Below, in pieces: positions 17,261 to 41,757 of a stretch of DNA of 64,000 nucleotides (the first letter of the stretch is position 1; the number at the start of each line of letters is the position of its first letter). The stretch covers positions 15,840,645 through 15,904,644 of the forward strand of contig OZ316893.1 in NCBI GenBank assembly GCA_973895155.1, written 5' to 3'. The position numbers were made by a program, and so were the translations under genes. The notes under the pieces are model-generated. The model was not told the origin of the DNA. It did not search any database and saw nothing but the letters and a program-made list of their open reading frames with translations. This DNA comes from Marsupella aquatica (taxonomy: Eukaryota > Plantae > Marchantiophyta).

Positions 17261-19543
17261 CACTAGAAGAAACCGGCCCATTCTGAGACCCTGCCTTAAG
17301 TGACTCTAATGAGACCTTGCAAAATTTGTGACTCCTAGGTTTTGGGTGTCATTATAGTTACAAGTTGTGGACTGAGTTTTGGAGAATTCTTGGGAAGTCA
17401 TTTCTATAACTATTGGGGAAGTTGCAACTATAACTAAGTTCAGCCAACAAGAATGAAGTTGTATAAGTGACTCCCTCTACAATAGAGCGTTATATATGTA
17501 AGAGAGCCTTAGGGTTTAACACCACAATCTAACCACATTTGACCCCGCCCAACACATACCATTTAGGATATATCCTAATTTTCTTAGTTGTCAATGGGAC
17601 TAAAGGAGATGCCCTCGGGATATTGTGTGAGTACGCAACTCTACAAGGTAAGTAAAGGTCCTTGGTCAATGTCAATGCTAACAGATCTCAAATATATACT
17701 CTACATTAGAGTAGACTGAATTACAACATATGTATGCCACAAGTTTACAAGTGTTACAACATAACAAAATAATCCCAACTAGCTAGGGTCCCACAATGGC
17801 ATGCATGTAATATTAATTGGACTCATTTTTGTGTCTAAATGGGTACATTTGAAGTTATCTCCTTGGTTATCTCTAACTCTCACATATGCAAGGGCAGGTT
17901 ATTTTTACTTATTGCACGCCATGCCATGCATACATACCGTCATGTACCCCCTCCACACATTGTTCCATCTAGATTCCTTTAATTAAAGGTTCAAAATCAC
18001 CAAGAACTGGGAATGCAGCTGGAACCTCCATGTACTTGGCATGTCTACATGTTATAATTAGACATATCTGATAATGGCACCCCACACACTATGCTCATGG
18101 AATGAGCATAAGAACTTGTGACAGTCCTTACCTTAATTAATCAAGCAAGGATCTGACGGTCGTAAACTTAATCAAAGGATGATCTGACGGTTGAAAACAA
18201 ATATGGGCACATTAAACCAGGTTTAGGGTTTAATGGATTCCTTCACGCCAACTCCCATTGCGCCTTGGATTCCTTTGGATTTGCGGACGAGGAGCTGATC
18301 GCGCATTCTTTGCGAGGGAAAAAAGGGGGCAGTTTGTCGATCACTAAGGCTGAAGCTGCATTGACAAATTGCAATCCCGACTGCAATGGGAGTAGTAGGA
18401 GGCAAGAAGAGCGAGTTTAGGGTGTTGCATAGACAAAACAGAATGTGAGTCGTAGGCAACATTCAGCCATTGTATGTGTTTAGCATTGATCATAGGCACT
18501 GTGGGAGGCACTGCAGGAGGCGTTTGCCACTGCGCAAGGCACTGTAGGAGGCACTTGTTCCTTCAAGCTGGGAGAGTCAATTTGACGTTCAGCTGCAACC
18601 TGGGATCGAGAACCAGGAGCTTCTCATTGCGGTTTGGTGTGCATTTGGACTGTTCTTGCAAAGTGGGACTCCAGGCCTGGAGACATTGCATTGATCGCCT
18701 TTGGATGTACATTGGAGTCCGACTAGGAGGCTTTCAAGTGGAGCTGGGTTGGAAGTGAGTTGAAGATTGAGTTGCCATCACATTGCAATAGCGGGGGATT
18801 GTTGCTCAGCTTCACATACTGCTACGGATTACTACGCAGCTTCAGTTTGAGCGGCTTGGTGCTGCATCAGCCCATGTAAGGCTGCAATCCCCTATCTTTG
18901 CTATGTGACCTCGCGGCTGCAAGTTTGGTTGACTTCTTTGTGCTGTGAAGCTGTTTTTGACTCAGGTTCCAGCCAAGTTTCACCAGCGCAAATTTTTCTA
19001 AACATGAGTGTGGGCTACAACTGGTGAGGTGGAAGGGATAAGAAAATGCGCTACCGTCATTGACAACATCTCAACCTTTTACAGTGAGCGCTATTGACAT
19101 TCGGCCGGCTGTAAGTGTATTTCAAGCTTGACTTTAACTTGCCATCTGCATGAACCGGCTTGCAATAGATGTTGTAGCTTTTGCTTAGCTGCATTCACCT
19201 CCCAAGATGCCCCGTGACATCCAGGTTTGCACAATGAGATAATAAGGCTGAAATGATAAGGTAGTGATTGCCAATGGATAAAAAGCTTTATGAGAGTTGC
19301 TTCAACGTTCAGCTGCAAACTAGGATTAGGAACCAGGAACTTGTCGCGGCAGTCCAGCTTGTTTACTTGGAGCCGGAGCTGGAGTCAAGTTTCACATGTT
19401 TCTTGTTTAGTGACAGAGTACTTCTGAGAAATGTGACAGCCCCTGTGAGAGCTTTCGGCACCAGTGAGGTAAAGGGTGTTCTTACTCATGCAATAGTCAC
19501 TTTGACCTTCTGAGTTTCAGCAAATTGAGTTTCAAGTGCGGGC

Positions 19544-19633
19544 ACTGAGAGTTGACCTGTTTGAGCTGGGGTCACTGAGAGTTGAGCTCTTTGAGCTACG
19601 GTTACAGAGAGTTGAGCTGTTTGAGATGCGGTC
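19544..19633. repeat. 30-bp tandem repeat x3
   Basis: Units resemble ACTGAGAGTTGAGCTGTTTGAGCTGCGGTC. Confidence 0.8.
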
Positions 19634-20930
19634 TCATAAGTGAACTAGATCCTCCCCCGTGTAAACGTCTAGCATAGTCACATGTCCAAGCTTTGCTTTT
19701 GACTCTGAATATATTCACTGTCAACCATTGAAGGAGCTACGTGCATGAATTGTCTACTTATTGGGTTGTTTAGGGATTCAATATACAAAAATGACAACTT
19801 GAGTAAGGCAGTCTACGGAGGCGCGAAAGAGTCGCGAGGAGTCGAGTTCAGCTACGGCAGTATTCACTTCAGTTGTCTCAATGTGGTTGGCGTGAGCTGC
19901 AGGTGAGCTTAGCTGTGTGCACATTTCATGTAAGTCAGGTGGTCGGTGTTTTAGGCATTGCGGAACTTGATTGACCACCCCATGGCTAAGGTTTAAGGTG
20001 CGGACTACAACAAATATGTGTTGTTGCTGAAAGTGTTGGTGGTGAGCGACAACTGGTATTGTTTCAGCTAAAGGGAGCACATTGGAGCTTGTGTATCCAT
20101 GACCTGCGACCGATTGCGGTTGCCTGCTGTTACAATTGCCGAATCAATCACGCACCCAATCTTGCGGGCAGACACAACTTTGCGGGAGTGTTGAAGGTTT
20201 AGGGTGAGCAACAGCGGAGAGCTCATTGCTTGGTGGCAGGGTTGAAGGTGGATGATCGGGCTGCAAGGCCAACCGGGGACTTGTTTTGCATTGAGCGATT
20301 GCTGCGGATTGCTACGCAGCTTCAGTTAGGGCGGCTTGGTGCTACATCGGCACAGGTAAGGCTGCAATCCCCTATCGACGCGGACTCACCTCGTGACTGC
20401 AAGTATAGTTGTCTAGGTGATGTATGCATTGCGTGTTTAGGGTCTAGGTGACATCGCTGCTAAGCAAAATTTGTGAGCTGCCTAGGTCCATTGCCGAATG
20501 TTGCTTCCTTTAAATTACCTGGTGCCTGCTGTTACAATCGCCTGCTCAATCATGCACCCAATCGCCTGGAGCTCATTTGCCTGGAGCTTCATCCGTCAGA
20601 TTCAAACTGTTATTGCTGCTCTGCCCTTTTGCCATGGGTTGCCGGCCTACCGGATGCTATCAACAGATTAAGAACAAGTCATATCCTAAGTCCCGGTGTT
20701 GCAGTGATGTCCCCGACCCTAAGATGCTTTCCAAACTCATCTTTCTTGTTTCCTGTTGCTGCTGATGTATGTATGTTCTCCCCTATTTTTGCTTACAGAT
20801 TGGTCTCTCCACACTTCTTGCTTGACATGATTGTTTTGCTCCTCCCTGTATCAGAACATGCCTTGTGCCCGGCGGTGGGGTGGGGGGGTGAACAGACGAC
20901 CTTAAGGTTCACTACATTTCTAGGAACTGT

Positions 20931-21090
20931 GCATCTTTCAGCTGATTTTAGCCGCAAGTTCCCTTGCTTTCCCCTGTTTTTGCTAAGATCCCTCCCACTA
21001 ATCACATGCATCTTTCAGCTGATTTTAGCCGCAAGTTCCCTTGCTTTCCCCTGCTTTTGCTAAGATCCCTCCCCACTAATGACATGCATC
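20931..21090. repeat. 77-bp tandem duplication
   Basis: GCATCTTTCAGCTGATTTTAGCCGCAAGTTCCCTTGC... starts at 20931 and 21008. Confidence 0.85.
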
Positions 21091-22280
21091 CTTTACTTTT
21101 CTCGGTGGCCCGTGCGCCTGCCTTCCTACTTTCGTTCTTATGGACTCTCCTTAGGTTTTCATTCACCTGGTTTTGGACTTTTTGCTCCGGTGGAATCTGT
21201 CTTGACAACTTGTGTTTGTTCTAATTGTTAATATCTCAAGAGGGTCGTCAACTAAGCTGAAAGGAGTCAAAGCTAACTACAAGCTAGCAAAATAATACAG
21301 AGAATGCTCCCAAGTCGAGTCAGGAGGAAGTTACTAAAACTAGACCTTCACAACTCTCGAAACTGGAAAGTGAAATTCAGCGTGAGACACGTAGCTGAAG
21401 GCCACAAGGATAACTATATGGCCACGCTGTCCCCCATTCAAGTCCAAAGTCCTCTTCAGATTGTCTGAACTCCTATTGAATGTATTGAATAATTATTTCA
21501 TCACAGAAATTTTCAGAACAAACACGGAAGCACCAGGGGGCTGAGGATTAGGTATTGAGGCTGAAGACATTGAGGTCATAAACTAGGTGTGGTTCGGGTG
21601 ACAATGTTAGCAACTGATGCTTCTTCAGGGGAACTTCCCATGTGCAGTTTATCCACACATGATTGACTTTGGTTCTTGCTGTTTTTCTTTTGGTGTACTC
21701 TTGAGTTTGGTGTCACTCTATCCTTTCCTGTAGCCTCGAAATAGGAACACACCTGCTTAGTGGTCCCCAATCGCCCAATGATTTATAATGACTGTGTCTA
21801 GGTGATGTATGCATTGCGTGTTCATTCCAGAAGAATGAATATGTACACTTTGCACAAACCTGGACAGATTTTGAATGTTATTTATCTGAGTTTCTGTTTG
21901 TGAGCTCTGACTTGGAGCCTTAACATTTGTGTTTCTGTGGGGCTGAGCAGAGTTTGTTCAGTCTAGAAGCTGCTGTACTGAAGTGATCAGCCTCCGGCTT
22001 GGAGGTGAATCTTCAATTTTTTGTGGATCCGAGTGACTTCTGTCCAACTGAGTTTTGCTTTGTCGGGACGATTGTGTTTGGCTAAGATGCTAGATTGTGG
22101 CTTGTCTTCTTGCTCCCAGCTTGTGTATTTTCAATTAATAGAAGTTGGGAACGAAGTGATAATTGAATTTCCTTATATTAAGCATCTTCACCTAGAAACT
22201 CAATACATAAACTCCAGGATTCCCTCGGGACATAAAATGAGCCAAATTGTCTCAAAATTGGGAACCTGCACCCGCACTAC

Positions 22281-22623
22281 TCAAACAATTGTGTTGGGCT
22301 TGGTGGCCTTGTAAGTCTTCTTTAGCTTTCGCAATGGAGGTTGAATCTTGCAGTACGTCAAGGGGAACTTGATCTTTGAATCATGGAACTGCTTGGTACT
22401 TTCTCGCTTGCACAGAGAGACAGGGACTGTCGTAGTCTTCATGATCTGGATGCAAGGGAACCGAACTCTATGACAAGAAGCCATCTCATCATACATCTGC
22501 TCTGCAGCTCCGTTTCTTGTGGTATCACAATATTCCTTGTACATGTTGTGATAACCTGTACGACTCTGATACGTGGACCCAGATACCGAAGTTCTTAATT
22601 GTGGTGGGCTTCTTTTTGAAGAT
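22281..22623 (-). pseudogene. RPL18A: Captured last-exon fragment of 60S ribosomal protein L18a (eL20)
   Basis: It reads [17 protein letters not shown], then after a +1 frameshift [43 protein letters not shown]...[17 protein letters not shown]...KTYKATKPN. It begins right after a CAG acceptor. Confidence 0.93.
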
Positions 22624-23631
22624 CTGGTAGACACATTATTCAGCATTTGCTAACTTCGAAACTAGAAGGGTAACACATTAAACAACAGAGAAACTCACAA
22701 CATCCTCCTTTGGTCCTTCAGAGTCTGTACTTTGATTCTGAAGTTTGACTGAGTTTTTGTTTACTAAAAGAATGTGACTGTGTAAGAGTTCCGTTTGGCA
22801 GTGGATTGGTTGAAGCACTTCATGCTAGTGTGTTGTCCACAGCTCTTCAACCAGCTTTCGTCTTCCTTGTCTTTCACCACTTACGATGACATCAATTCAG
22901 CTAAGACCATAGAAGGTTCCAAAGCATCTAACTTGTAAAATCGCATTCTGTTACATCAAGGACTAAGGTGTTGGGTGCCAAAGGAGACAGCACAACAAAC
23001 ACGCTGAAAAGACTTCAGGACTGGGTTCAACAAGGTAGTGAAGGTGCTTAGAGCCATAGTAAGTATGCATTCTGTATCTTTCTCTATTGATGTGAGCTTG
23101 TGCATAATGGGAGTTGTAGTTGGCAAGAGTTCCAAATATGAATAGATCCAGAAGTATGTGATCATGTACTTGCTCTATAAAGTTCTGAAGATATAAGCAT
23201 TTTCTGTTAGACCAGGCAACTTGGGAGTTGGTAAGTGTCACCTGCATCTGAGGGGCTACACCGGGGCATCAGTGGAGGTTCACTTGCACAACACGACAAC
23301 CAGTGAATTTTCTCTCTGCTGCAACCTGCAAGGTGAGACTTTCGGTCTTTCTGGATGAAAAAACAGGAGTTTAATATGATTGATATACATGTCCGTCGAG
23401 AATATGGGTTTATCACCAAGCTCTTTGTCTTAGGAAACTCATAAACTCAGAATCAAATATGTACTATGCACGTTTCATGCTATGTGTATACTATGACCTG
23501 TAGTTGGAACCAAGACAATGAGTGGGAACTGATTAGTTTAGGTGGTTGCTGTTGGCGAGGCAAGTCGACCTCCTACTCACCTTGCTCATCAAAGGACGTG
23601 AACAGAGGACATCACAACGAAAGCAACACTT

Positions 23632-24081
23632 ATGGTGAGGACCCGCAACGCTGAACATGTGCGACTTGCACGCAAGGCAGAGATGTTGCGCCTTGAGTAT
23701 GTCAGACTTGGGATCCTTCCAGCCCAGTCTGCATGGTACTTTGAGTACCCTGTTGTTTCTAGGAACAACTACAGTCGGCCTCTACCTGCTTCCGTACCCT
23801 TCCCGACATCCTTGGTATTTGTGTCTCTTGTACATGACCCGCCACAAATTAGGTGCCAAGGGTGTGTACACAGTTGCCAATATGACTGTCCTGCCTGTAG
23901 GGCTTCTGGCCCAGAATTGGATGACCGTTCTCTTGGATGCCGATTTTTGCACAGAGCACAATGTATCATCTGGAACCACTCGCCATCCTGCAGTGTGCTT
24001 GGTGATGTCACTTGTCCTGCCCTCCCAGACCCCACCACCGGTGACTTTGGTGTCTACACATGTTTGGATCACATGCTCTAG
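23632..24081 (+). CDS. Cys/His-rich putative zinc-binding protein, 149 aa (CACTA cargo)
   Basis: Intact ATG-to-stop ORF containing CQGC..CQYDCPAC..CRFLHRAQC..HSPSC..C..YTCLDH, on the same strand as the downstream cargo genes. Confidence 0.5.
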   Translation: MVRTRNAEHVRLARKAEMLRLEYVRLGILPAQSAWYFEYPVVSRNNYSRPLPASVPFPTSLVFVSLVHDPPQIRCQGCVHSCQYDCPACRASGPELDDRSLGCRFLHRAQCIIWNHSPSCSVLGDVTCPALPDPTTGDFGVYTCLDHML

Positions 24082-24696
24082 AGGACCACTTGTCACACCG
24101 CATGCACAGACCAGATACCATTGACCTATAGCTTAACACTCTGACTTCAACACAGAGGATATTTACTTAAAATTTTGATGTATGAGCAATTTTGGGTCCA
24201 GGGTTTAGGGTCAACAGTACATAACTTATATCCTATTATGCCTGCACTAAGCAAAATATCCTAATTTAAGAGGCTAGCAAACTCGCATAAAAGTCTCTAT
24301 TGAAAGACTGCTTTCATGACTGCTTTAACCTGGTGAACATTGCAACGTTGAATGAATTAATGGGCCATGTGATAATATGCAAAATGATTTATGCCTCACT
24401 TATTTGTCTCAGCCACTATCATAACCTATTTAGGATGTATAAATTTCAACCCTTATGACACTGCTTCATACCAATCCTCTTCGAAGAATGCCTGTTTTAC
24501 ATGTCACGACTATTGTATGTGATTCAAATGCATGAAATGTTGTTGCAGATCTCCTTTGGTGAATCATAGCCACAATTAAAATTGAGGTGTTGGTGGAGAA
24601 ATTGTATTAGGGGATCAGTTTTGTGTGTGGGCTCAACATACCAAAAGTATGTGTGCTCTGCATCCTTGTGTGGCCATTCCAATTCATTGCAGTAGC

Positions 24697-24840
24697 AAAT
24701 GCCTTTGTACCTTAAATGCTAAATATATTTTACTTTCTGTGCAGTCTGCTAAATTGTAGAGTCTATCTAAATGCCTTTGTACCTTAAATGCTAAATATAT
24801 ATTACTTTCTGTGTAGTCTGCTAAATTGTAGAGTCTATCT
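24697..24840. repeat. 72-bp tandem duplication just upstream of the PHD ORF
   Basis: AAATGCCTTTGTACCTTAAATGCT... starts at 24697 and 24769; the copies are near-identical. Confidence 0.9.
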
Positions 24841-24851
24841 CATGCGCAGGC

Positions 24852-25532
24852 ATGGCACGGCCTAAAATTCAAGCCAAAAAGCGTGTGACAGAGGTGAGAA
24901 ACACAGGTGTACTTGGGGCAGATGCTACTAACTTCTCTGCAAGTCAGATTTTCCAGAAGGCAGCTCATTGTTGTGCCATTTGTGACGATGGTGGGGGCCT
25001 GGTCATTTGTGAGGGCCCTTGCATGAGGCATTTCCACCTCAACCCGGAGTCTGACCTTGCTGCAGAAAACAACTGTCCAGGGGTGGGCCTCCCGTCAACA
25101 CACCAGGGAGACTGGATGTGCACTGATTGTTTGGAGAAGCAGGCTAAGTGTGCACAGTGTGGGAAGTTGGGGTCCTATGAGGGCTCTGTTGATGCTGCAG
25201 CAAATGTTAGGAAATGTCCAGACCGTTTTTGTGTGAGATTTTTCTGTTTTGAGTGTTTGCCTGCTCATGCCACAGCTTGCCCACTTCATAGGTGCAAGGC
25301 ATGTGGTGAGCATGATGATGACTACTGGACTGACATAGTCCACTGTGCTAGGTGTCCCACTATGTGGCACTATCATTGCCTGAAAGATCATCAAGCAGAG
25401 GGTTATGCTTGTGACAGAGAAATCTATGATCACTCTGCACATGGTGTTGATCGATGGATATTTTATTGTCATCGCCATGCCATTGATCCTACCTCGCGCA
25501 CTCCTGTGAGAGATCACATATCTTGGTTGTGA
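24852..25532 (+). CDS. Stand-alone EDM2/NSD-type composite PHD-finger protein, 226 aa (CACTA cargo)
   Basis: CAICDDGGGLVICEGPCMRHFH..WMCTDC..CAQCGKLGS..C..FC.RFF..CPLHRCKACG..CARCPTMWHYHCL..WIFYCHRHAIDPTSRTPVRDH follows the EDM2 PHD region motif by motif, as I recall it. Confidence 0.85.
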   Translation: MARPKIQAKKRVTEVRNTGVLGADATNFSASQIFQKAAHCCAICDDGGGLVICEGPCMRHFHLNPESDLAAENNCPGVGLPSTHQGDWMCTDCLEKQAKCAQCGKLGSYEGSVDAAANVRKCPDRFCVRFFCFECLPAHATACPLHRCKACGEHDDDYWTDIVHCARCPTMWHYHCLKDHQAEGYACDREIYDHSAHGVDRWIFYCHRHAIDPTSRTPVRDHISWL

Positions 25533-26118
25533 AGCTGAACATTGTACATGCACAGTGCACCTGATGTGGATGTACTATTTTTTGAGATTGCAGAGATTCC
25601 AATTTTGAAAAGGAGTTGGGTAGGCGAGTTTATATAGGCAGCACTTATCTTGTGCTCTGGCGTCAGTGGCTGGGTACATGCCTATACAAACTTATCCTTA
25701 CAAGCCTTCTTGGAAGTATTTAGGCTGAGTGGTCATTTTCATAAACACTTTCATCACACTGCTAAATTAAAACAGGACTTCTAAGTTGTAAGCGTATAAA
25801 TTATCAGGCATGCAATTAATCAAATTGCCCTATAAGTTTGTCATTGAATGTATCCTCCTTTACAACAAAATATGTATGTGCCATGACAAGTTGGTTGCAC
25901 TTCATTTCACCACGGATATGGATTTTGTAGTATATATTCAAACAATGTCCTACATCCGTGCAGGTGCCTAGTACGTATTGTTCACATATCCCTTGTACCT
26001 ATCAAAATCGGATCTGAGCACCAGTGGGCCAGATCAACTCAAAAAGCAGGAATTTTGTTGTCCTTGTATTGTCAGGTGAACCCATTCTTCCAAAATTCAC
26101 TGTCATCACGTAGGGTGT

Positions 26119-26997
26119 GTGTACATGGAGCCTGGTAAACGTAGAAAGTGTGACCACCCAGCAGTGTTTACAGGGGTCAGAGCGATTTTGGTCCATGGCC
26201 AGCATGGGTTGACCAAAGTGCATTGGCCAACTGTACAGAAACGATTCTCTGAGCTCCATGGCACTGTAGTTCAGGACATCACTCCAGAGACTACACATGT
26301 TGTTGCAGGGACATGGCTATCAGTGATAAAGAAGTGGTCATGGTCCTACATGAATTCTGCAATTACTAAGCAAGGCCTAAAAGTAGTTGAGGCCTCTTGG
26401 ATCACAGATTCCATAGCACATAAGATTGTACAGGATACTGAGCAATATGAGTTGTGGGAGGATGAAGAAGCTAATGCATCAGCTTGGGCTGAACAAGAAG
26501 TCTGGGAAGCAAAGGCACGGCTTGCTGATCTCCAATATGGACCTGTACTCAACAAAGGACAGAGCTCTACAAGGCTGAAGAGTATGTTGGCTGAGGAGAC
26601 GAAGCAACCAACCCCCATTCTGAAAGGGCTGAGCATGGTATTTGTGGAGGCGGGAATTGGAGAGGTTAAGTGCAAAGTGTACAAGTCCACAGTGCTTGAC
26701 CTAGGTGGGACAGTGGAGGAGAATATAACAGAGGACACCACTCATGTCATTACTAAGTCATATCCCAAAGCCTGCCGCAAGTTTGGGAAGGGACACATTC
26801 GCTTTTATGTCATGTCCCATAATGTGTTTGTGGTTTCATATGCTTGGCTTGTGGAATCAGTAGCAGCTGGGAAGCGTCAAAACCCAATGGACTATGATCT
26901 TTTTGAGGCCTGGCCACGGAAGGGTCAGGATCCTTACAGAGAGGACTATGAGACAACAAGTGAGGAATGGGTCATTAGCGATTCTGAATCAGAGTGA
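26119..26997 (+). CDS. Tandem BRCT-domain protein, about 290 aa, with DNA polymerase lambda-like BRCTs (CACTA cargo)
   Basis: Two repeats: VFTGVRAILV..GTVVQDITPETTHVV..VVEASWITDSI..YEL and ILKGLSMVFVEAGI..LGGTVEENITEDTTHVI..VVSYAWLVESVAAGKRQNPMDYDL. The ORF is intact. Confidence 0.85.
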   Translation: MYMEPGKRRKCDHPAVFTGVRAILVHGQHGLTKVHWPTVQKRFSELHGTVVQDITPETTHVVAGTWLSVIKKWSWSYMNSAITKQGLKVVEASWITDSIAHKIVQDTEQYELWEDEEANASAWAEQEVWEAKARLADLQYGPVLNKGQSSTRLKSMLAEETKQPTPILKGLSMVFVEAGIGEVKCKVYKSTVLDLGGTVEENITEDTTHVITKSYPKACRKFGKGHIRFYVMSHNVFVVSYAWLVESVAAGKRQNPMDYDLFEAWPRKGQDPYREDYETTSEEWVISDSESE

Positions 26998-27430
26998 GGA
27001 GTAGTAGCATCAGTTTGGACACAAGTTTTTTTGTATAAATCAGATCATTGAAATAAATGTGATCTTTGAACTAATGTACCTTGTTATGGTTGGTGGCAGT
27101 TGGGCTTATTTTACTGTTGGCGGATTGTTGTTTCCTGCTGCCTGGGGTTGTCACTGTAAACGTACATGCAGAGGCGGTACATTTGAGGACAGCGGAGGAG
27201 GTGGTGACACCCTCCAACATTTAGAAATTTTGTGTCATTCACTTGACAATAGGTACACTACTTGCGAACCTGTTTTTTTCTTTTGGGGTGGTTTAGGGTT
27301 TGTGAGAATTTAGTACACGTTATGTTAACTCTTTTGGCAGATACAGTCAGGGATATATGGAACACAAATACCACCATTAGGCATCCTTGTTCACTGCTGT
27401 CCATGACTGCAGAGCTCCCAGCCTGTTACA

Positions 27431-30400
27431 ATGCACCCTGGTCACCACCCTCCCCAGACCCAGCCCAGGGCACAGGCACTGCCTTTGCATCATCCCACAA
27501 GGATATCACGCCATGATAATAAGCTTTGGCAGCGTGAAAGGTTACGAACCAGACTTTCAGGAGCCAGTAGGATGAGATGTCCTTGTGCAATCTGCCAAGG
27601 ATCCCGTGCCAGGGGTCTGAATGAGGTTTGGCGGCATATCGCGGTTCATGGAAGAGATCCACGACATCGAGTTTGGAATGATCCTGCAGAGGAAGATTCT
27701 TCCGACGAGGAGTGGAGGTTAGAATTTGATGCTGCCAATGCTGCAAGACGGGCAAGTGAGGTTCTGCCTGGTGCATTTGAAAATGTTGTAGCTGGTCTCT
27801 GTGGGTTGTCAGCTCTCCAACGGGATGGTGCTCAGGCAGCACCACGTGACGAAGGAATTCATGTGGAAGAGATGGTGAGAGACATCTTCCAAGACTTGGA
27901 TGCATTTCATGATGGGCTGGACAATGAAGAGGATACGGCTGCAGATGCAAGTGTGCCCCCTGTCGAAGAGCCTCTTGATGAGTTTGAGATAGGGCAGGAA
28001 ACCCCTGGGCATGATGGGATGTTTGGCTCTCCCCTGCAAATACAGGAAGGCAGGAAGTCTTTGTACCCCGGTAGCAAATGTTCTAAACTGGGATTTGTCA
28101 TCATGTTCCTGAACATTTGCGGCAACCACAATGTCCCCAACGTTTTGGTTTCTGAGTTGTTGGCATTCTTGCGAACAATTGTGCTACCAGATGGTAATAT
28201 TTTGCCCAAGAACATGTACGAGGCAAAAAGATGCATATCTAATCTTGGATTGAACTATGATTCGATCCATGCCTGTCCTGATGGGCATGTTCTTTTCAGA
28301 AAGGAGTATAAAGAATCGTTGACATGCCCTAAGTGTGGGAAGCACAGGTATCGGAACTCAGGAAAGTCTATGGTTCCCGCCAAGGTACTTCGTCATTTTC
28401 CACTCATTCCCAGACTTCAGCGGATGTTCAGAAGCCGTGCCATCTCGGAGATGATGACTTGGGCAACTGACAAGAAAAGTGATGATGGGCTACAACGACA
28501 TGCTGCAGATTCAAGGCAATGGAAACTCATAGATGAGATGTATCCCGAATTTGCTGCTGAGCCGAGGAATGTCAGACTTGGGCTGTCATTGGATGGGGTA
28601 AACCCATTTGGAGACAAGAACAACAAATTTTCATGCTGGCCTGTAACTATTTTGAATTATAACCTTCCTCCTTGGATGACTACAAAGCAATTTTTTGTTC
28701 AGATGGTCCTACTGATACCAGGGCCAGACAGTGCTGTATCTGCCAACATAGATGTGTTTCTGGCTCCCCTAGTGGAGGAATTGAGAAAGCTTTGGGAGGA
28801 AGGAGTTCTCACATATGATGTCCTACAGAGGCTTGGGAGGTTAAACCCATTCATCCTTAGAGCCATTGTCATTCTGACTATAGCTGACTACCCAGCCCAT
28901 GGGATGATATCAGGCCAAACAACAAAAGGATATTGTGCTTGTACTATCTGTGGGCGCAATGTCACCAGTGAGTACTCCAGAGCCCTGCAGAAAGTGATAT
29001 ACATGGGCCATCGTCGTTTTCTGAAGACAGATCACCCTTACAGAGAAAGACAGGCACTGATTGCACACTTTGGCAATGAGATTGAGCAACGTGGACCCCC
29101 GGCACGAGTGACCAAAGAGGAGATCAGGCAGTGGGGAGCACTGAGGGATGACTATATCAAACGAGGGGGCAGGGAAGATGGAGTGAGTGATCCAATAAAG
29201 CGATATGGTGTAAAAAGACTGAGCATATTGGACTTGGAGCTCAAGTACTGGAGGGTAAGCCTCTTGGAGTTGATGCTAATTGGGATACATGTTTTGGTTC
29301 AGAGCATGTGCATTCATTTCGAAGAGAGACTAAACTTGAGGCATTTCCTGACGCTTTTGCATTGCAACGATGCAGGAGTTTGAGCCAAGCAAACATAACA
29401 TTGATGTTATGCACATTGAAAAGAATATTTGTGAGAGTCTACTCAGATTCTTGTGTGGAGAGAAAGACACTGGTTCAGTGAGATTGGATCTTGAACAGAG
29501 GGGAATGAAACCCCATCTTTGGTTGAGGCCACATGCCCACAGAGCTGATGTGCTCTTGAAGTACCAAGCGCCCTATGTTCTGACAGACACAGAGTGGGAA
29601 CTATTTGTGCAGAGGTTGAGTTCTTTGAAGGTTCCTTCAAACTATGGCAGTGCTTTCAAGAAGCATATCATGACTAGAAAGCTTGGTAGTATGAAAAGCC
29701 ATGACTACCATATGTTGATGCAACAGGTGTTGCCTTTATGCCTGAGGGGCCTGTTGCAGAAGCCTGTTCGTACTGTGATCATGCGACTCAGTGATGTGTT
29801 TCGTCGTATTTGTGTGAAGGTTTGGGATGAAACACACTTCCCACAACTGACAGAAGATGTCGCTCAGGTGCTGTGTGACCTGGAGATTTATTTTCCTCCC
29901 GCATTTTTTGATGTCATGACCCACCTACTTGTCCATGTTGTGGAAGAGCTACACCAATTTGGGCCTGTGAGTGCTCGTTGGTTGTACCCTTTGGAACGGT
30001 ACATGAAGCTACTCAAAGGTCACGTGAGAACATATTACAAACCTGAAGCAAGCATGGCTAAAGGTTACATCAAGGATGAGACTCTGGGATTTCTGACCGA
30101 ATACATAGCACAATATGAGCATGTGAAGACCAGGGTGTGGAATTCTGATGAGGAGGAAGGGGTGGTAGGTGAAGTACTGGAAGGGGCTGCAACCACAAAG
30201 AACCTGACCATATCTATGAGAGACTTGGCACATGACTTTGTATTGCACAACACTGTGGTGATGGAACCCTGGATACAGTGAGTGCATACATGTGCTATAA
30301 TCCAGTTCATGAGCTTAAATGTTGTGTTCGTGTGGTTTTCTCCTTCAGCCTGTTCATGTTTACCCAAGCTAATGCTGTGTGGTTGTTCGTTCAGGGAGTA

Positions 30401-31160
30401 TGAGTCATTGAAGGCGGCCCATCCCATTGCAGGAACAACTTTTCCAGGTTTCATGGAGTGGATCAGAGTGGCAATTAGAGAGCATCACGAGACCCACCCA
30501 GACATGGATGCAGATGTTTACCTACTGTCTAATGCCCCTAGCCTGAAAGTGAAGACTTACAAACGGATGAGAGCATATGGGAATCACTTCCGAGTGAAGG
30601 ATGGTGACAGTGCCTACAGGGTGACGAATGACTGCGGGCTCATCACTGTATTTGAGCAACAGAGCCACAATCACGACAGGGCCTGGATGGAGATGGGATA
30701 TGTGGGAGAATTAGTTGACATATGGGCTCTGGACTATGGGGCGGTGTCCAGTCCTGTGATTCTTATGAAAGGTTCATGGGTGCGGCAGGATTGGCTTGGT
30801 AACAGGGCTACCATGAAGAGAGACAACGACGGTTTCTTGCTGGCCAATTTCAGAGGGAAATTGCCCGAATGGTCTGAGCCATTTGTGTTTCCTAGTCAGG
30901 TGGAGCAAGCTTTCTTCCTGGATGTGGAAGACTCCCCAGGTTGGCGTGTAGTGTGTCATAAACAGGCCAGGCAACGCCGGATGGAAGGATCAAACCTTGA
31001 GTTTCATTTACACTCTCATAGTGCCTTTGATCATCGGCGTTCAGACCAAGTGCCTGTAGTTCATGATAGCGGGGACTTCATTCCTGTGACAAGGGTAGAT
31101 GCATTTGCTGAAGGAGGCGAATTCAGAGATGCAGATGCCAACAGTGTGCCTGTGCCATGA
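27431..31160 (+). CDS. CACTA TnpD/Tnp2 transposase (Transposase_21, DUF4218, DUF4216); 3 exons, about 1163 aa, apparently intact
   Basis: Exons 27431-29254, 29376-30277 and 30395-31160 join in frame across GT-AG introns. Motifs: RNVRLGLSLDGVNPF, ADYPA, HNIDVMHIEKN, MKSHDYH, FPPAFFDVMTHL, RWLYPLERY and EPFVFPSQVEQAFF. Confidence 0.93.
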
Positions 31161-31317
31161 GTAATGTGAATTGTTTGCATAGACATTAGTGAGGGGAAGG
31201 ATGTGTAATAAAGTAATTCTGAAGCAACACAGATGTATGGATGGATGCCTGGTGATTGTGGTTGCATTGTGTTATACGGGGTGACCATAGATGACATGTT
31301 TTTGTGGTCCAGTAGGA

Positions 31318-34300
31318 TGGAACAGAGTGACACAGAGATGTGTGAGTATGAAAGGAAAGCTATGGAACAACGAGCATACGTGAAAGCCAAAATCGCAGAA
31401 CTGGATCTGGAAAAGGATGTGGCTGAATTGTAAGGGAACGATTCTCAACTACACCCCTCCGCTGAGTTTGTGTGACATGAATAGTTCAATGTGGCACTGA
31501 AATTGTGACTGTATTCTCATATTGGAATGTCGCAGAGCCACAGCATTTTCAAAGAAACAAAAGGAGTACGCAAGAAGGGTGACCAGCACTATCTCTGGGC
31601 CTGTGCGTCGGAGTGACAGGTTGAGCAAGAAGGTCGTACCTACAATGGCAGAATGTGGAGATGACATTGATGCTGCACAGGTGGGTGCAGACACTAGACA
31701 AGAAGATGCAGATGATGAGTATTTTCCAGAGGAAATGGATGAGGATGGGGGTTATGAAGATGAATACATTGCAGAGCAGCCCCAAAAGAAACATGTAAGT
31801 AGTTTTCCCAACAAGGTTTTGAGTTAAAAACTCTTGTTTATGTTGTGATAGACAACTAAAGGAACACTCAAAGATACTCCAACAAGATAGATCCATTACT
31901 ATTGATGAGGGGATATATATATCCCCTTGGTTACATGGTAGGCAAATGCCCTTATACTGGTCCTATGGTTAGGAGTTCTCATACTATGGTTAAGGGTTCT
32001 CGCCCTATGGTTAAGGGGTAAACTAGGGTTTACAACACTCCCCCTTGGTTAGTTTATGGAGGAGCATAAAGTAACCACATCTCTTGAACCTAGGGTATAA
32101 TCCGGTTTAGGGGTCCACCTGTGTGATGTAGCCTCATTAAAACCTCGCCGCTTTCTTCTCGAGGAAAGAGTGCTACCATCACTTATATAGGTGGTTTCCC
32201 ATATCTAATGTCCTGGTTAAGCCTTTTTGCCATGTCTTAGTTAGTGTTAATCGTATGTGCTAAGTGGGGTTATGTGAATGTTCCTAATGGGTGTCTAGTC
32301 TCCCCCTCAGCTCGTTGCCTGGTGTGCGCCTCGTGTTGTTCTTCATGTCGTTTTGCGTATTGCGCTTCGCTTCGTGTTGTGCTTTGGGTTAGTGAGGCCA
32401 AGTCGGGCGTTTTTGCGTTGGTTTGCGTTGTTTCACGTCGGGGATGTGGTGTGGCGCTCGCCGAGTGTGGTGGTCGGGCATCTGGAGGCGGCTTCATCGG
32501 GCGACAGCTTCGTCGTTGGGTAATCCTTTCGAGCTTCAGTGTTATGAGGTGGGCTTGATCGTGGACAATCTGCTCATGCCTATGCCTTCGAGGTGCGCTC
32601 TGTGCAATCCGGCTGGTAGTGGTTTCGTAAACATGTCTGCTCGATTGTCCTGAGATTTGATCCATGCAACATTGATACTTTTCCCTTGTTGTTCTTGCGT
32701 GAAGAAATACTTGGGGTCAATATGCTTGGTCCTCTCGGTCTTCAGGATTCCGTTGGTTATCTGGTCGATACACGCCTTATTGTCTTCGTAGATTGTGGTT
32801 GGCTCTGTTATCTGTGGTTTACCGGTGCTGGACCTAATATGATTGATAATGCTTCGTAGCCATACAGCTTCTCTGCACGCCTCGTATAACGCTATGATTT
32901 CCGAGTGGTTGGATGACGTTGTGGTCATTGTTTGCTTTGAACTTCGCCAAGATATTGCTGTCGTCCCCTGTAAGAACACGTACCCAGTCTGTGATTTGGA
33001 GTCCTGGGGGTCCGACAGGTAGCCGGCATCAGTGTAACCGGTAAGCGTATCGGGGCTATTCTTAGGAAAGAATAGTCCAAGGTCGATCGTCCCTTGTAGG
33101 TATCTCATGATCCTCTTGATGCCGTTCCAATGCCTGATGGTGGGCTGTGCGCTGTGTCTCGCTAAGAGACTGACGGCGAACGATATGTCAGGTCTCGTCT
33201 GGTTCGCTAGATACATAAGGGCGCCCACCGCTGATAGGTACGGTTTTTCTGATCCCAGTATGGATTCGTCTTCTTGGCGCTTCCGAAACATATCTTTGAT
33301 CGGGTCTAGAGATCTGAGTTCCATCGGGGTGGAGACAGGGTAGGATTTCTGCATGTTGAATTGATGAAGTATCTTCTGCGTGTATGTCGATTGGTAAAGG
33401 AATATGCCTGTTTCTAAGTGTTCGATCTGCAGGCCTAGGCAGTGGTTGGGTCTTCCAAGGTCCTTCATCTCGAAGACTCCTTTCAGTGTATGTATTGTGT
33501 CTTTCATCATCTGTTTAGTCCCGAATAAGTTCACATCGTCCACGTACAGTGCTAGTATCAGGACTTCGTCCATATGCTTTTTGATGAAGATGCAGGGGGC
33601 CAGTCCGCTATTTGTAAATCCGAGGGCGAGCATCTCTGTCTGGAATTTCTGATACCAGATTCTGCCGCTCTGTTTAAGTCCGTTGATGGAACGTAACACT
33701 TGGACTGTAAGTTTTGTTGTTAATTTCTTTCCTCTGGTATGCATTGCCTGTGTATTTCCACTTTGCATCAAGAGGGCCTTTGTATCCCCATCAGGTATTA
33801 TTTGGCTGATGCCCTTTTTAATCTCTGTATTCAGGTTCTGGGACGTCTCCCCCTGAATGTGCTGCTTGACCCTCTCTATCAGTTCCGGGGGGGCAGTCAT
33901 GTATATCTCAGTATCGAGTGTGCCGTAAAGGTACGCGGTTACCACGTCCATAAGGTTATTAACCAGTTTATGGTGGACTGAATGTGCTGTGAGATAGCGA
34001 TATGTAGTAGCGTCCATTACTGGTGAGTATGTTAAATCGTAGTCCCTGCCCGGGATTTGTGTGTAGCCTTTGGCTACTAGCCGGGCTCGATATCTTACTA
34101 CTATGCCTTTCTCATTTCGTTTTTTCAAGAATGTAAATCGAGAGTCGGTGTAATGTGTACCTGGTAATGCCATTTTAAATGGTCCGAATACTTGTCGCTT
34201 GATGAGGGCGTCCATCTCGGTATGTATTGCTGCTTGCCACTTTGGCCAATCTGGTTGTTTCTTTGCCTCGTTTATAGTGAGCGGATCAGGAATATCGTTG

Positions 34301-37300
34301 GTGATTTCCTGTATTACGTTATAGGCAAATTGTTCATCAATTTGGGTTGTCGGTCGTTTATATATGTTACCTGTTTGCATGTATGTGATTGACATTTCCT
34401 CGTTTTCTTCGCTCAGTGGGTCGTTTTGATTTATCGCTGTCACGTTAAGTGTGATCGCTGGTTCCAGCGCGGGTGTACCCAAGTTTGCTGCTGGAGTTTT
34501 ACGTTGGCGAGGCTGGGAGTCCTTGATCCCTGGTGGTCTGCCTCGCTTTGCTCTGGGGGCTGTTACATTGGCCGGTGTCGAGGAGGTTTGTACTCGCGAT
34601 GGCGCATTAGCTGCTAAGTTGTGGGATCTTGTGACATTTGCAGCGTCGTTAAATGAGTCTGGAATCTTTTCGAGCATTTCATGTAGGTGGAGAAGTCTTC
34701 TGACTTCTTCGTCTGCCTGCTTGGTTCTGGGGTCATTTCTGTTTTGGTCTGCTTTCCAATTTATGGGCATTTTCGTTGTGTCCTTGGATTGTGTTGATGC
34801 TGTATTCGTGAGCTGTGGGAATTGATCTTCATAAAAATGGCAGTCCTGATGTCTTGCCTTGAACAGGTCTGCCGTTGTCGGTTCAAGGTATCTAATGATC
34901 GAAGTAGAGTCAAACCCAACATAGATACCTGCATTCCGTTGGGGTCCGAGTTTTGTTCTCTTTGGTCCTAAGATAGGCACCATTACCTGGCATCCGAAAA
35001 TGCGTAGGTGGGACAGGTCCGGTGGTATGCCGAACGCCAGGTGGTATGGTGTCTTAGAGTTATATGCTGACGGTCTATATTGGATTAGTGCAGCTGCGTG
35101 AAGGATGGCATGTCCCCATGCTGATGTGGGTAAGTTTGACTTCATTAACAGTGGTCTTGCCACCATTTGAAGTCTCTTAATAACCGACTCAGCTATACCG
35201 TTCTGAAAATGAACGTGGGGAACTGGATATTGAGTATCGATGCCCGCTGCCCAGCAAAAGTCGTCGAATGTTCTTGATGTGAACTCGCCAGCTCCATCTA
35301 CTCTTAATCTTCTTGTAGGATACTCTGGGAACTGTGCTCTTAATTTAAGAATATGTGCTAAGATCCGCGCAAATGCCAAGTTGCGGGTAGATAGCAATGA
35401 AATCTGCAGCCATTTAGTTGATGAGTCGATGATTACCAGGAAATATTTGAAAGGGCCGCTCGGGGGGTCTATAGGTCCGCAGATATCTGCATTGATCTGC
35501 TCTAGGAACTGTGGTATTGAAAATATTGTTTTTGGTATTGATGGTCGTATGGTCATTTTTCCTTGTGAGCACGCTATGCAGGCTGTTTTTACCTTTGGCT
35601 TGACTGTCTTGGGGATTCCTTTGGAGTCCCTTATAATCCTGTTGTACATAGTGGTACCCGGGTGGCCCAGTCGACAGTGCCAGATGTATGTCATATCCTC
35701 TGATTCTTGGTGTATATGGAATGTTTGGATACTGGTTGCGTATAGGCCTGGGGGGATCAATGCAAATGTTTCTTTAATGGATGGCTTACCCTGTATGTCT
35801 TGTATGATCTGTAATGTCTCTGTTTTGCCCTGAGTATTCGTGCGCAGTTGGAGGTTATTGGATCTGATATCCTGGAAGCTGATGAGGTTTCGGGTTGCTT
35901 TCGGGGCATAAATTGCTGACTTCACGGTGATTTTAGTTCCTCCTGGTAGTATAAATGTGGCTCGTCCTTTGCCTTCTTCTATATGATTAAGTCCTGCTAT
36001 GGTGGTGATAGCGCGGGATGATGGGGTGATGGCCTCGAAATACTTGCTGTGTTTTAAGATAGTATGTGAGGTTCCGCTGTCGATGATGCCCGTATCGGGG
36101 TCGTCTAATGTCGGGTATTTCCAGTCAGTAAGAGAGGTATGTACTTCTATCTGTTCTTGTGTTTCTTCTCTCTGAGAGGCAATCAATTCTTCTTCTATCT
36201 CCATATAATGTCCTTGGGGGTTTTGTCTGGACTTATTTCTGTCGTTTATGTATCTGTGGGCCTCTTGTTCTGTGGCTGCACATGCGTTTCTAATGTGGCC
36301 AATTTTGCCACATCGGTAACACATTTTCTGGGAATTGTTTGCAGTGTCGTATTGGTTGCTTCGTCCTCTTCCTCTATTATTCATGGTGCCTTTGCGCCAC
36401 GTGTTATTGGATCCGGAGGGTCGGTTATAAGGTTTGCCTTGTCCTCTGAATTGATTTCTCCCGCCCCTGAATTGGTTTCTTCCGCCTCTGAATTGAGTTC
36501 GTCCGCCCCGGTAATTTCCTCGTTGTTTGTCTTCATAATTGGTGTAGTGGGTTTCAGGTCGATGTGGTGGGGGGTCTGATCCTGCTGGGCGCTTTCTGGC
36601 GTTTTGCAAGGCCACGATCTGTTGCTTCTCTTCCACAAGTAAGTGAGCAATCAGATCTGAGTACTTAGTGAAACGCATGTTCCTATATTGTGTACCTAAT
36701 GTGATATTAGATTCAGGGAATGTCGATAGTGTCTTATCGATTCTATCTATGTCATTTATTGGATGTCCACACATTTCTAATTGAGATGTAATTCTGCACA
36801 GTGCGCTATTGTAATTGGCAATTGTGGTGTGGTCCATGACGCGCAGGTTATGCCAATCCCTTCTTGCCTCTGGGAGCCATATCTCCCTCATATGATCAAA
36901 TCGGGCTTTGAGGAGATCCCATAGTTTTCTTGGATTAATTTCGTTCATATACTCATTCTTTAGTTGAGGGGTTAGATGTTGCCTGAGTAGAAACGCTGCC
37001 TTAGCCTTTTGTTTGAGCGTGACATCGATGTCGGTATCTAAGGTGTCTTCAAGGTCTTGTGATGTAAAGTAAGTTTCGACATCTGTGATCCACGTCAAAT
37101 AGTTGGATCCGTCGACTTTAAGTGCTGGCCATAATAATTTTTCGACTGTATTCATTATTCGGGATGTCAGTTGATTTAAGAACTTTGGTGAAGATTGAAT
37201 CGAGTGAAGTATCTCGATTGTACAATTGACCGGTTGGAAGCTTGTATATGGAGCTGAGGGAGCTTTCAATCATGCCAATAAAGTATTAGTCCTTTGGACT

Positions 37301-40300
37301 CTCGATATGCTGGTCCCGAATTGATGCTCTATGTGAAATTTCGTGTTTTGTAAAAAAAATTCAACTCTGAGGCAAAAGAATGGAGACCAAGAAAAAAAAC
37401 GGTTATGGCAGTTTCTAAAAAAAAATGCCACTTTACGAGCATTCTCCTCGTGTAAAACTCGATTGCATCTGCTTGAAAAAAAATGATTTTAGAGACTGGC
37501 TCGTGCTGATAACGTGTTGTGATAGACAACTAAAGGAACACTCAAAGATACTCCAACAAGATAGATCCATTACTATTGATGAGGGGATATATATATCCCC
37601 TTGGTTACATGGTAGGCAAATGCCCTTATACTGGTCCTATGGTTAGGAGTTCTCATACTATGGTTAAGGGTTCTCGCCCTATGGTTAAGGGGTAAACTAG
37701 GGTTTACAACAGTTTAGAGGTTTCATATGTTCAGTACTACACATATGTACCTTGCTTAGTTCCTGACATTGTAGTTGGTGATGTGATGCAGCGTCCTGCC
37801 AGTTCTGTTTTGCCTTCGAAGCCTGTGCATGCACCATACCAGCAGGGGGGGCTGACCTCTGATCAAGGTTGGCGAGGTGGTAGTAGTGGTAGATCCCAGG
37901 CTGGTGCCCAATACTATGGCAGGGGGCAAGCTCTAGGTTATGCCCGTGGTAGAGGCAGAGCAGGTCCAAACCCACAATCTCGTGGGTATGGACGTCCACC
38001 TCAACCGTGGGGATGTGAGTATATATCTATATGCCAGTTCTTTGTGAAGGCATGGCACTCCTGAATTTCAGACTGCATATCAATTTTTGACATTGTTTGG
38101 GATGTATTGGATTCAGACAACATGAAATTCTGTCCACCTGCCATTGCATGCAGATTCTGCCCAACCTGATTGGGCAAATGCTAGTAATGATCAGTTCCAA
38201 TGTCCACAAGGACAGACATGGGTTGAACCAGGTTGGGAGGATGGTGGTGGGTCGTGGAATGAACAAGGTTGGGAAGGTGGTGAAGGTAATTGGCAGGGAT
38301 ATCAAAATTCAGTACCTACAAACGCTGGAAGAGGAGCAGGTAATGTCTGATCTTGTCAGCAATGGAAGAACTCATTATATGTGGAGTCCATTCACGTGGG
38401 GGGGACTCTGCACATGTATAATGATAGAAAATGTATGTGTGCAGGTTGGACAGTCGAACCATCAACTCAAGTATTCACTAATGCCCCTATGCAGATGCAG
38501 CACGGAAGGGGGACAGGTATGTCGGTGAATGTTCAGTTGTTTTCCTACAGTTTGTACTTAGTTTTCAGTACATATGTTTGCACACACATACCTAGAAAGT
38601 GACATCATCCGGCCCCTGTACTAGGCTGGACAGGTGGTCCAGGGTCGCAACAATTTCAGAGTGCAGTCCCTGCACAGGCATCTACAGGCAGAGCTACAGG
38701 TATGTATGTTTGAAGAATTTTTCTTGAAGTGAAGCATTGAATGTTGCCGTCATCCATTCTGCTATATGTAGTTCTCAAGCATGAATGGCATTGTATTTTC
38801 CCAGGTGGCTTCAGAACCCCAGGTAGGGTGAATGAAGGGGTGGCCAATACAACGCCCAGTACTACCGAGAGCAGTGCACGAGGGGAGGTGACAAAGAAAG
38901 GGAACGTAAAGTTGAATGAGAGACAATGGGTGGATGCTGAGTGTCCTCGCAAGAACTGATGGCATGCTGATTTGAAAGTTGAAGTATTGCGTTGGTTAGA
39001 TGTGAGTGTTATTAATTTTAAAAAACAGCATCCAAAAGATTGGAAGACTGTATGTGAAAATGTTGCTGCCAAATGGAATTATGTGGGCAGTGATGATGGC
39101 GTGGACATAGGTTGCCTAGAGAGTACAGCAGGTAAAATTATCAAGCAAGAGAGGTGGAGAATGCATAAGGCTTGGAAGGAAGGTGGGGAGAAGCCAGATA
39201 TGCCTCCACCAGCCAGTTGTGATGATAAAGTGTGGGCAAGGTTAGTAGCTTATTTTGTAACAGATGCTTCAAAAAAGAAGAGTTCACAGATGACCGAGGC
39301 CAGGTTGAGTGTTCAGAACCCTAATCTGACAGGAAGGACCGGCACTGCACCGACAGCTAAACGTTTGGTAAGAATGAATGGCCTAGCTATGTAATTTATG
39401 CTACACTATGTACTATTTTTTAGTGTAAACCCATACATGTAAACTTTGTTTTTTAGTGTACGTTCCCTGAATATTGATCGATAACTTGTGTTTGCCATGC
39501 ATGTGCAGAAAGCCCAATTGGGGCAAAGCCCTTCAAAAGAAGAGTTGAGGGCTGAAATTGTGAACACCCGGGCTCAAGAGGGTGCATCTGAATCCTCCAA
39601 GCATGTAAGTTATATGAGTTCTGATTGGTAATTGAATGACCTGCGTTGAATTTCAGGTGTACACTGTATATAACATTGATTGTGCATATATTGCCCAACA
39701 TTTCATATGGAGTGATTGAACCTATACCCCTGTGTCATGTAGGGAGGTGGATCTTCACTTACAGAGATAAGTGGTCGTTTGAAGGCTGTCGAAACATGTC
39801 TTCCAGAGATCAATGAACGTTTGAATTCATTGACTGACTTGTTCCATGTGAACTTCAAGACATTAATGGAAGCTGTTGTGTCGGTGAGAGATAAAATTGA
39901 TTCCAATTCTGCAGGAGTTCCACCATCACCACTTGAGGTGGCAAAGTCGATGCACTCTTCTGGCATGCCAACGACATGTAGGCTTGAAGGTAAGGCCTTT
40001 ACAACTGTGTGGGATATGATTATTAAATGTATAGTTTGAATTGACATTGTTTGTTGAATGTGTTATTTTCAGTAACATATATTGTGGTTGTTGTGTCCAT
40101 AGAGAATAAGACAGGTGCTACAGAGAAGAAGTATGAGAACCTGGCAAATACTCGCTGTAATTTAGAGGCAACAAAGTTGCAGTCTGTACAAGCAACTTGT
40201 TTGACAGAGGGCAGTCAACCATGTTTGGATGAGGATGACATTGGCAAGGGAGTGGATGATATCAATGTTGGGGCAAATGAGGATATCAGCAAGCATGACA

Positions 40301-41444: not shown

Positions 41445-41720
41445 AATAGTCACACGCTAGTCGTTGTTGAATGCGGGTAAGTCATGTATGTGACTTACGA
41501 TGTGACTCGCTGAAGTCATATTGCAGTCACGTCGAAACAAGGCTAGACTCCACAATAAAGTCACAGATCAGTCACAAATGGGTATCAAGCAAGTTGCAAA
41601 GCCCAGTATCAATAGTGACTTCCATTTTTTGGTCTCAACTTTTGCAACTCCAAGGGTCACAGCGTGGGTCAAGTCACGTTGAGTCACAATGAAGTCACAT
41701 GAGCCAAAATGAGTCATATA
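41445..41720. repeat. CACTA subterminal short repeats (AGTCAC/GTGACT), putative TnpA sites
   Basis: More than ten AGTCA(C/T) or GTGACT copies occur in both orientations, with a few more at 17298-17475. Confidence 0.7.
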
Positions 41721-41757
41721 TTGCGGTCTCAGTTCACCTCAGATTCTTCTAGTGTAA

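Follow-up and report, generated by a model that had tools for sequence, protein, structure and literature searches.

A tandem-BRCT gene of probable DNA polymerase lambda ancestry carried by a CACTA transposon of Marsupella aquatica

A CACTA (En/Spm) transposon of Marsupella aquatica carries an intact, intronless gene for a protein of two diverged BRCT repeats, and this gene belongs to what is an unannotated accessory-gene family of plant transposons, within a known transposon class. The element lies in a window of 64,000 nucleotides of contig OZ316893.1, the whole stretch of DNA that was analysed. Comparisons of sequence profiles and phylogenetic trees point to the N-terminal BRCT domain of DNA polymerase lambda (Pol lambda) as the probable origin of the tandem family, and variants of the open reading frame (ORF) show purifying selection. 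From these comparisons we predict, with a probability of roughly 0.4, that capture and duplication of the Pol lambda BRCT gave rise to a selected, non-catalytic adaptor acting at the breaks of the element itself. Cut-and-paste transposons rely on host break repair, and an element-borne, selected Pol lambda derivative makes it testable whether transposons influence how the breaks they cause are repaired.

Results

Reading frame, domains and predicted fold

The features of the element and of the tandem-BRCT ORF are listed in Table 1. A first-pass annotation of this DNA had placed the ORF at 26119..26997; the frame is indeed intact, but its methionine lies at 26125, two codons further downstream, in a frame that is open already from 26080. 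Given the local composition, a stop-free frame of 290 codons has a p value of ~5e-8 per start position. The Pfam search recognized BRCT in two stretches of the 290-aa protein (E 1.6e-13) and returned neither a polymerase family nor an 8-kDa lyase domain; the Pol X catalytic part is absent, as the ORF stops after repeat 2 and the tail, and likewise in its relatives. The repeats share 24% identity over 99 aa (E 2e-12). Two diverged BRCT repeats without a polymerase domain, as originally proposed, are thus what the protein contains. The possibility that splicing joins the ORF to the PHD or the transposase gene was also weighed and is improbable, because the relatives have both the start and the end of the ORF in common.

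Table 1. Coordinates of the CACTA element, its genes and the parts of the tandem-BRCT ORF (positions in the window).
Feature	Position	Strand	Basis or remark
CACTA (En/Spm) DNA transposon, 24.5 kb including a nested 5.9-kb Copia	17261..41754	+	Terminal inverted repeats (TIRs), target site duplication, Pfam
Left TIR, 11 bp	17261..17271	+	TAA target duplication at 17258-17260
Captured ribosomal protein L18A (RPL18A) fragment, ordinary cargo	22281..22649	-	Pfam E 3e-18
Cargo ORF, 226 aa, intact, NSD-type PHD finger cluster	24852..25532	+	Pfam matches below cut-off; Atlas: top cluster 0.92 (Streptophyta)
Tandem-BRCT ORF, 290 aa, intronless	26125..26997	+	ATG at 26125, TGA at 26997
Basic N-terminal patch, candidate nuclear localisation signal, directly before BRCT 1	26125..26148	+	Putative role
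BRCT repeat 1, aa 12-113; H33/T36/V37 at the Ku-contact positions	26158..26463	+	Model and alignment
Inter-repeat linker, ~50 aa: predicted helix aa 114-137, then a low-confidence part	26464..26610	+	AlphaFold2
BRCT repeat 2, aa 163-261; K182/V185/Y186 at the Ku-contact positions	26611..26907	+	Pfam, model, alignment
Acidic Ser/Thr-rich tail, alike in most full-length relatives	26908..26994	+	Sequence comparison
TnpD-type transposase, open 1163-aa frame with predicted introns	27431..31160	+	Pfam, splice prediction
Very young Copia: both LTRs identical (197 nt), target duplication of 5 bp, polyprotein intact (1537 aa)	31841-37711	-	Splits the TnpA-like gene region
TnpA-like gene exon	38960..39391	+	Pfam, Transposase_24 E 7.9e-5, below cut-off
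Right TIR, 11 bp	41744..41754	-	TAA target duplication at 41755-41757

AlphaFold2, run on an alignment of 18 sequences, predicted two BRCT folds at approximately residues 12-113 and 163-261 (mean pLDDT 73), joined by a linker of ~50 aa that begins with a helix (114-137), with low confidence at 137-160 and 264-290; no packing between the repeats was confidently predicted (pTM 0.44), the alignment behind the model being shallow. Compared with solved BRCT structures, the domains reached a best Z of 16.0, with an rmsd of 1.5 over 93 residues, and the top matches were PARP4 BRCT domains (Z 15.6-16.0, rmsd 1.5-2.2) at 11-12% identity; these fold searches bear out the BRCT assignment but do not resolve subfamilies. 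Similarly, the Atlas search returned generic BRCT clusters only, all below 0.9. The tryptophan of BRCT helix 3 is kept throughout the tandem family (W92 in 11/11 domains, W241 in 10/10).

The linkers had been described as acidic; this fits the C-terminal tail, whose 29 aa carry a net charge of -6, whereas the 50-aa inter-repeat linker is half helical and only mildly acidic (net -3). At the opposite end of the protein, the basic patch matches in position the basic N-terminus of angiosperm Pol lambda, an enzyme reported to have an NLS-BRCT layout (PMC4444747). The tail (26908-26994) also displays a Tyr-x-Thr-Thr/Ser-acidic pattern common to several family members. We take this pattern to be loosely similar to the casein kinase 2 sites through which repair scaffolds recruit FHA proteins.

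The CACTA element and its accessory genes

The suspected cut-and-paste transposon proved to be a CACTA element, inserted in the reverse transcriptase region of a Gypsy-type retrotransposon. Its inverted ends read CACTAGAAGAA, and short subterminal hexamer repeats occur at 41448-41693, with one hexamer having 13 of its 33 window copies within the two element ends. Pfam domains in the element include Transposase_21 (E 1.2e-69), DUF4218 and DUF4216, and the TnpD frame contains predicted GT-AG introns at 29255-29375 and 30278-30394, allowing four open splice combinations of 1160-1163 aa. The element therefore shows the features by which CACTA/En-Spm transposons are recognized: TIRs with a 3-bp duplication, TnpD, a TnpA-type piece (below the cut-off) and subterminal repeats.

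From left to right, the element comprises the RPL18A fragment, a Cys-rich ORF, the PHD ORF, the BRCT ORF, TnpD and the TnpA-like gene, and the BRCT ORF sits between the TIRs, 434 bp upstream of TnpD and in the same orientation. Its CpG observed/expected ratio is 0.23, compared with 0.24-0.41 for the transposase exons and 0.74-0.85 for the flanking retrotransposons, and the PHD ORF shows the same depletion; this shared depletion is consistent with a long residence of the BRCT ORF in the element. The PHD ORF (24852-25532) presumably resembles the PHD module of EDM2 and, as a transposon-borne histone reader, is an anti-silencing candidate in its own right. The Cys-rich ORF (23602-24081, + strand, 149-159 aa), without a convincing Pfam match, is a possible further accessory gene.

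The stretch was found whole or in part in nine public runs from 7 studies, the best of which may be its own source. Numerous variant contigs cover the ORF within single runs, 99 of them in run X2, 80% to 100% alike, and contigs join the ORF to its flanks, observations which are together consistent with a repeated family. The linkage of the BRCT gene to a CACTA transposon is seen in this element and its close copies.

Distribution of the family and selection on the ORF

Word-based homologue searches yielded only two relatives and none among longer proteins, blanks which carry little weight; the two relatives (60% and 54% identity) begin at the same point as the ORF and almost equal it in length. 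A metagenome scan with an alignment of three sequences found no locus, and one with P0066 found a single locus, whose 1.4 kb are too little to reveal a transposase. When 1.84 billion proteins were searched with a profile, 59 matches at E <=0.001 were obtained; by our own classing, 20 of them belong to an orphan family of BRCT-only proteins and the other 39 are from hosts. Cluster mates included, the family comprises 10 full two-repeat members, this ORF among them, and additional single-domain or partial members, two of which are annotated genes of 141-143 aa in Riccia fluitans. The full members have a common BRCT-helix-linker-BRCT-tail layout, and the two-repeat members are open, full-length ORFs at 23-60% identity. 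One more distant relative copy, L001, the one relative whose surrounding DNA was read, contains a premature stop, as expected for decaying copies.

The variants of the ORF show purifying selection. Among 40 of 92 variant sites, those listed and taken singly, 18 are synonymous, more than the 22% to be expected (p=0.001), and third codon positions account for 22 (p=0.004); a single apparent stop corresponds to a codon changed at all three positions, and the sole indel among the variants listed is of 3 nt and in-frame. Treating 28 sites as one diverged copy, an approximate assignment, gave a pN/pS of ~0.43 (p=0.02).

Repeats 1 and 2 score 139-145 against each other in hhalign, and no more than 113 against any host class. 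Since the repeats are closer to each other than to any host BRCT, the tandem probably originated by duplication, and the likely course was an internal duplication after capture.

Ancestry of the BRCT domains

Among the 39 host matches, 20 are N-terminal Pol-lambda-type BRCTs, and 17 of the other 19 come with several BRCTs; Pol lambda therefore accounts for 20 of the 22 single-BRCT host matches. Within the Pol-lambda-type set, three proteins carry Pol X catalytic domains, one was assigned via a cluster mate and one via its placement in the tree, and P0036, P0051 and P0059 are the weaker assignments. With a profile of 16 of these matches, human Pol lambda was the top-ranked PDB entry (93 bits vs 47). 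All three profile tests put Pol lambda first among host classes for repeat 1; for repeat 2, Pol lambda was best on class means and by hhalign, with a narrow lead over BRCA1-type first repeats; repeat 2 of this particular copy scored 59.6 with the BRCA1-type profile vs 55 with the Pol lambda profiles. The pairwise best match was Pol lambda for 22/31 family domains, including both repeats of the ORF, a figure for which the share of Pol lambda domains in the host set (20/94) is not a fair baseline because that set came from the same search. The top host match of repeat 2 is the Pol-lambda-type BRCT of a streptophyte protein, P0020, whose label jgi/Mesen1 presumably stands for Mesotaenium.

Three trees, all built on 99 columns, were compared. 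A quick tree of 125 rows grouped 29/31 family domains with all 20 Pol lambda domains, REV1 and one orphan (SH-aLRT 88). A careful tree of 42 rows instead grouped BRCA1-type BRCTs with repeat 2 of this copy (96/82), a topology against which the Pol lambda grouping was not rejected by the AU test (p-AU 0.156). Finally, a careful tree of 65 rows used a better alignment and omitted 2 rows of the family, 7 of Pol lambda and 51 others. In it, 29 family domains formed a group with 13 Pol lambda domains and one orphan (96/92), and repeat 1 joined plant Pol lambda (82/81).

A likeness to Pol lambda had previously been suggested for repeat 2, and it extends to both repeats, in their best host matches as well as in the 96/92 group. 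The comparison of BRCT subfamilies by profile and phylogeny, advised at that stage, gave a less uniform answer: two of the three trees are for Pol lambda (88; 96/92), but one is contrary (96/82), and human Pol lambda was not the top PDB match of the family profile (30.6 bits, below REV1, Rad4 and BRCA1), ranking 47th by fold (Z 11.6 vs 16.0 for PARP4).

The Ku-contact motif and the conserved surfaces

In human Pol lambda, helix 1 of the BRCT domain is reported to dock on the Ku70/80 bridge via R57 and L60; both R57A and R57E are damaging, and R57K is not among the mutants described in the available text of that study (PMC12056208). The R57/L60/F61 positions of this Ku-binding BRCT type (B-KBM) were mapped through the alignment of the Pol-lambda-type profile. 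The complete motif, of the form R-x-x-hydrophobic-hydrophobic, is present in 16/20 Pol lambda domains, 5/10 single-domain or partial relatives and 1/8 other controls, and in 0/21 tandem-family domains. The R57 position is variable in the tandem family, with arginine in just 4/21 domains, and lysine replaces it with the rest of the motif in 2/21, including repeat 2 of this copy. This repeat reads K/V/Y, a set of conservative changes, and repeat 1 reads H/T/V, the motif being lost. As a family, the tandem proteins are therefore no Ku-docking mimic, even though they would descend from an NHEJ-docking module, and the first-pass proposal that the protein recruits or blocks NHEJ in the manner of Pol lambda is not supported in that form. 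For repeat 2 of this copy, weak residual Ku docking is predicted at most. The best candidates for true Pol lambda mimics are single BRCT-plus-helix relatives that keep the full motif, namely P0029, P0056 (Riccia fluitans), P0015, P0027 and P0032.

Conservation in the tandem family concentrates in the helix-2 region and at the end of each domain. The conserved helix-2 residues are W64 (11/11), V67, S72 and W73 (10/11) in repeat 1, and Y213, C217, G221 and R226 (each 8/10), as well as A216, in repeat 2, a distribution that points to a shift of the conserved surface, in either repeat, away from helix 1 and onto helix 2. Regarding the BRCA1-type phosphate pocket, repeat 2 has Ala-Gly and Phe-Gly-Lys instead, and Ser/Thr-Gly occurs in 1/10 repeat-2 and 0/11 repeat-1 tandem domains, compared with 6/8 of the 'other' controls. 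We take this pocket to consist of Ser/Thr-Gly after strand 1 and Thr-x-Lys in helix 2, roles drawn partly from PDB titles.

Discussion

By sequence, the N-terminal BRCT of Pol lambda (human 2JW5/9G9L; Arabidopsis) is the closest host class to the transposon-borne repeats, and in both a basic patch precedes the BRCT. The ORF differs in having two BRCTs, no introns, no 8-kDa or polymerase domain, and a helical linker in contrast to the Ser/Pro-rich one of Pol lambda, and the helix-1 motif, kept by half of the single-domain or partial relatives, is not conserved in the tandem form. Two other classes place two BRCTs in one chain. The C-terminal tandem of DNA ligase IV (LIG4; 3II6) has a long, partly helical linker and an NHEJ context, and its second BRCT is weakly similar to repeat 1 (E 0.004), but the repeats of the ORF are nearer to each other and to Pol lambda. 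The phosphopeptide-binding tandems of BRCA1/MDC1 type are the top Foldseek matches of the ORF, which differs from them in that the Ser/Thr-Gly pocket is mostly absent, the linker is long and the rmsd to BRCA1 tandems exceeds 13 A.

With autonomous CACTA/En-Spm elements (TnpD plus TnpA), this transposon has in common its termini, 3-bp duplication, subterminal repeats and the possession of extra ORFs. In Chondrus crispus, En/Spm families are described as enlarged to 16-20 kb with 4-5 ORFs (PMC6431247); what differs here from known enlarged CACTAs is the nature of the extra ORFs, one a tandem BRCT and the other an NSD-type PHD cluster. The excerpted text of that review of giant transposons mentions neither BRCT nor PHD, and a term search did not find BRCT in a survey of EnSpm-related elements of fungi (PMC12730594). 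A full-text literature search, whose reach did not extend to repeat-library entries or supplements, retrieved no report combining CACTA or EnSpm with BRCT, and a broader search listed nothing on a transposon-encoded BRCT. The gene represents a new accessory-gene family, likely derived from Pol lambda and with a putative repair role, within a class of transposons that is already known.

The nearest functional analogy is provided by Paramecium PolXa/b, described as development-specific enzymes for the repair of PiggyMac excisions, in which a lambda-type BRCT and the adjacent linker are specialised for the breaks of a transposase-derived enzyme (PMC11997757); according to the same account these are full polymerases encoded by the host, in contrast to the element-encoded, non-catalytic protein reported here. 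In Arabidopsis, the Pol lambda BRCT is reported to bind LIG4 and XRCC4, and Pol lambda itself has been implicated in repair at transposon excision sites (PMC4444747). This biology, together with the loss of the motif and the conservation of helix 2, leads us to favour an adaptor over the alternatives considered below. The proposed course would start with a single BRCT-plus-helix module, bearing the Ku-contact motif and taken from the N-terminus of Pol lambda, whose internal duplication would then have produced the tandem form. Subsequently, the helix-1 Ku face would have drifted, and the helix-2 face and the acidic tail would have become the constrained surfaces. The resulting product may be a nuclear, two-headed adaptor placed at transposase-made breaks, likely linking them to host end-joining factors and taking part in the handling of excision or insertion breaks.

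A broader version, in which plant CACTAs took the NHEJ-docking module of Pol lambda as a repair adaptor of their own, with single and tandem BRCT proteins bridging the transposase to end-joining and steering break repair, is a tentative and rather doubtful generalization. If true, it would describe a transposon-encoded DNA-repair modulator, a mobile counterpart of the host PolX/Ku specialisations in ciliate genome rearrangement. In any case, the family constitutes a natural series, from single-domain proteins with the Ku motif to tandem proteins without it.

The alternative that survives best, although we consider it unlikely, is that the Pol-lambda-derived domain has lost any repair role and serves as a chromatin or anti-silencing subunit, acting through its helix-2 face with the PHD protein, TnpA or a host chromatin factor. 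The shift of conservation to helix 2 in both repeats would suit such a role, as would the adjoining NSD-type PHD cluster with the same CpG depletion, and the PHD fingers of EDM2 are reported to read H3K9me2 in an anti-silencing complex (PMC7472560). Adjacency is a weak argument, however, and the single-domain relatives keep the Ku-contact motif; therefore, the family would have begun with a repair-facing surface. Should the repair role fail, an unannotated accessory-gene family of plant transposons, here paired with a PHD reader, would still stand.

It is improbable that the protein is a plain Pol lambda mimic, a dominant-negative decoy whose two BRCTs compete for the Ku bridge and block gap-filling or end joining. 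Catalytically dead human Pol lambda has been described as dominant-negative in an R57-dependent manner (PMC12056208), and such a decoy would be in line with Pol lambda ancestry and the K/V/Y retained in repeat 2 of this copy. Nevertheless, a surface selected for Ku should be the most conserved one, contrary to the variable motif, with H/T/V in repeat 1 and so few family domains keeping the arginine.

Passive transduplicated cargo of the Pack-CACTA type, without function for the element, appears quite improbable. Host-derived sequence lies between CACTA ends in the Pack-CACTAs described as capturing host DNA (PMC6379663) and in this transposon, where the RPL18A fragment fits the description, and the broken L001 copy would agree with a dispensable passenger. 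Unlike a Pack-CACTA, though, the element supplies a transposase of its own, and its BRCT gene is old, duplicated and selected: it has no close host parent among the search matches, its variants display the synonymous excess, and the internal duplication is conserved among 10 two-repeat members with full-length open ORFs that have diverged to 23-60% identity.

Some single BRCTs, such as those of RFC1, REV1 and PARP-family proteins, bind nucleic acid directly, but direct recognition of element ends or break structures by the present protein is very improbable, given that fold rank among BRCTs, here led by PARP4 at only 11-12% identity, is no guide to function, and that sequence and trees set the family apart from PARP-type domains, notwithstanding the conserved R226 and helix-2 aromatics.

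Other features of the window

A region at ~7831-12821 is studded with a palindromic 15-24-nt repeat and contains an ORF piece (8338-8946, - strand) with a weak Pfam match to N6_N4_Mtase (E 0.0012, below the cut-off); this region may be another DNA transposon, with an amino-methyltransferase. Further copies of the palindromic repeat lie near two ORFs at 52018-54766 (+), which gave no Pfam match at E 0.1; the second ends in a Cys/His pattern that we take to be similar to a SWIM finger. Finally, a fragmented LINE-type reverse transcriptase occupies 60423-62323 (+; RVT_1 E 1e-28).
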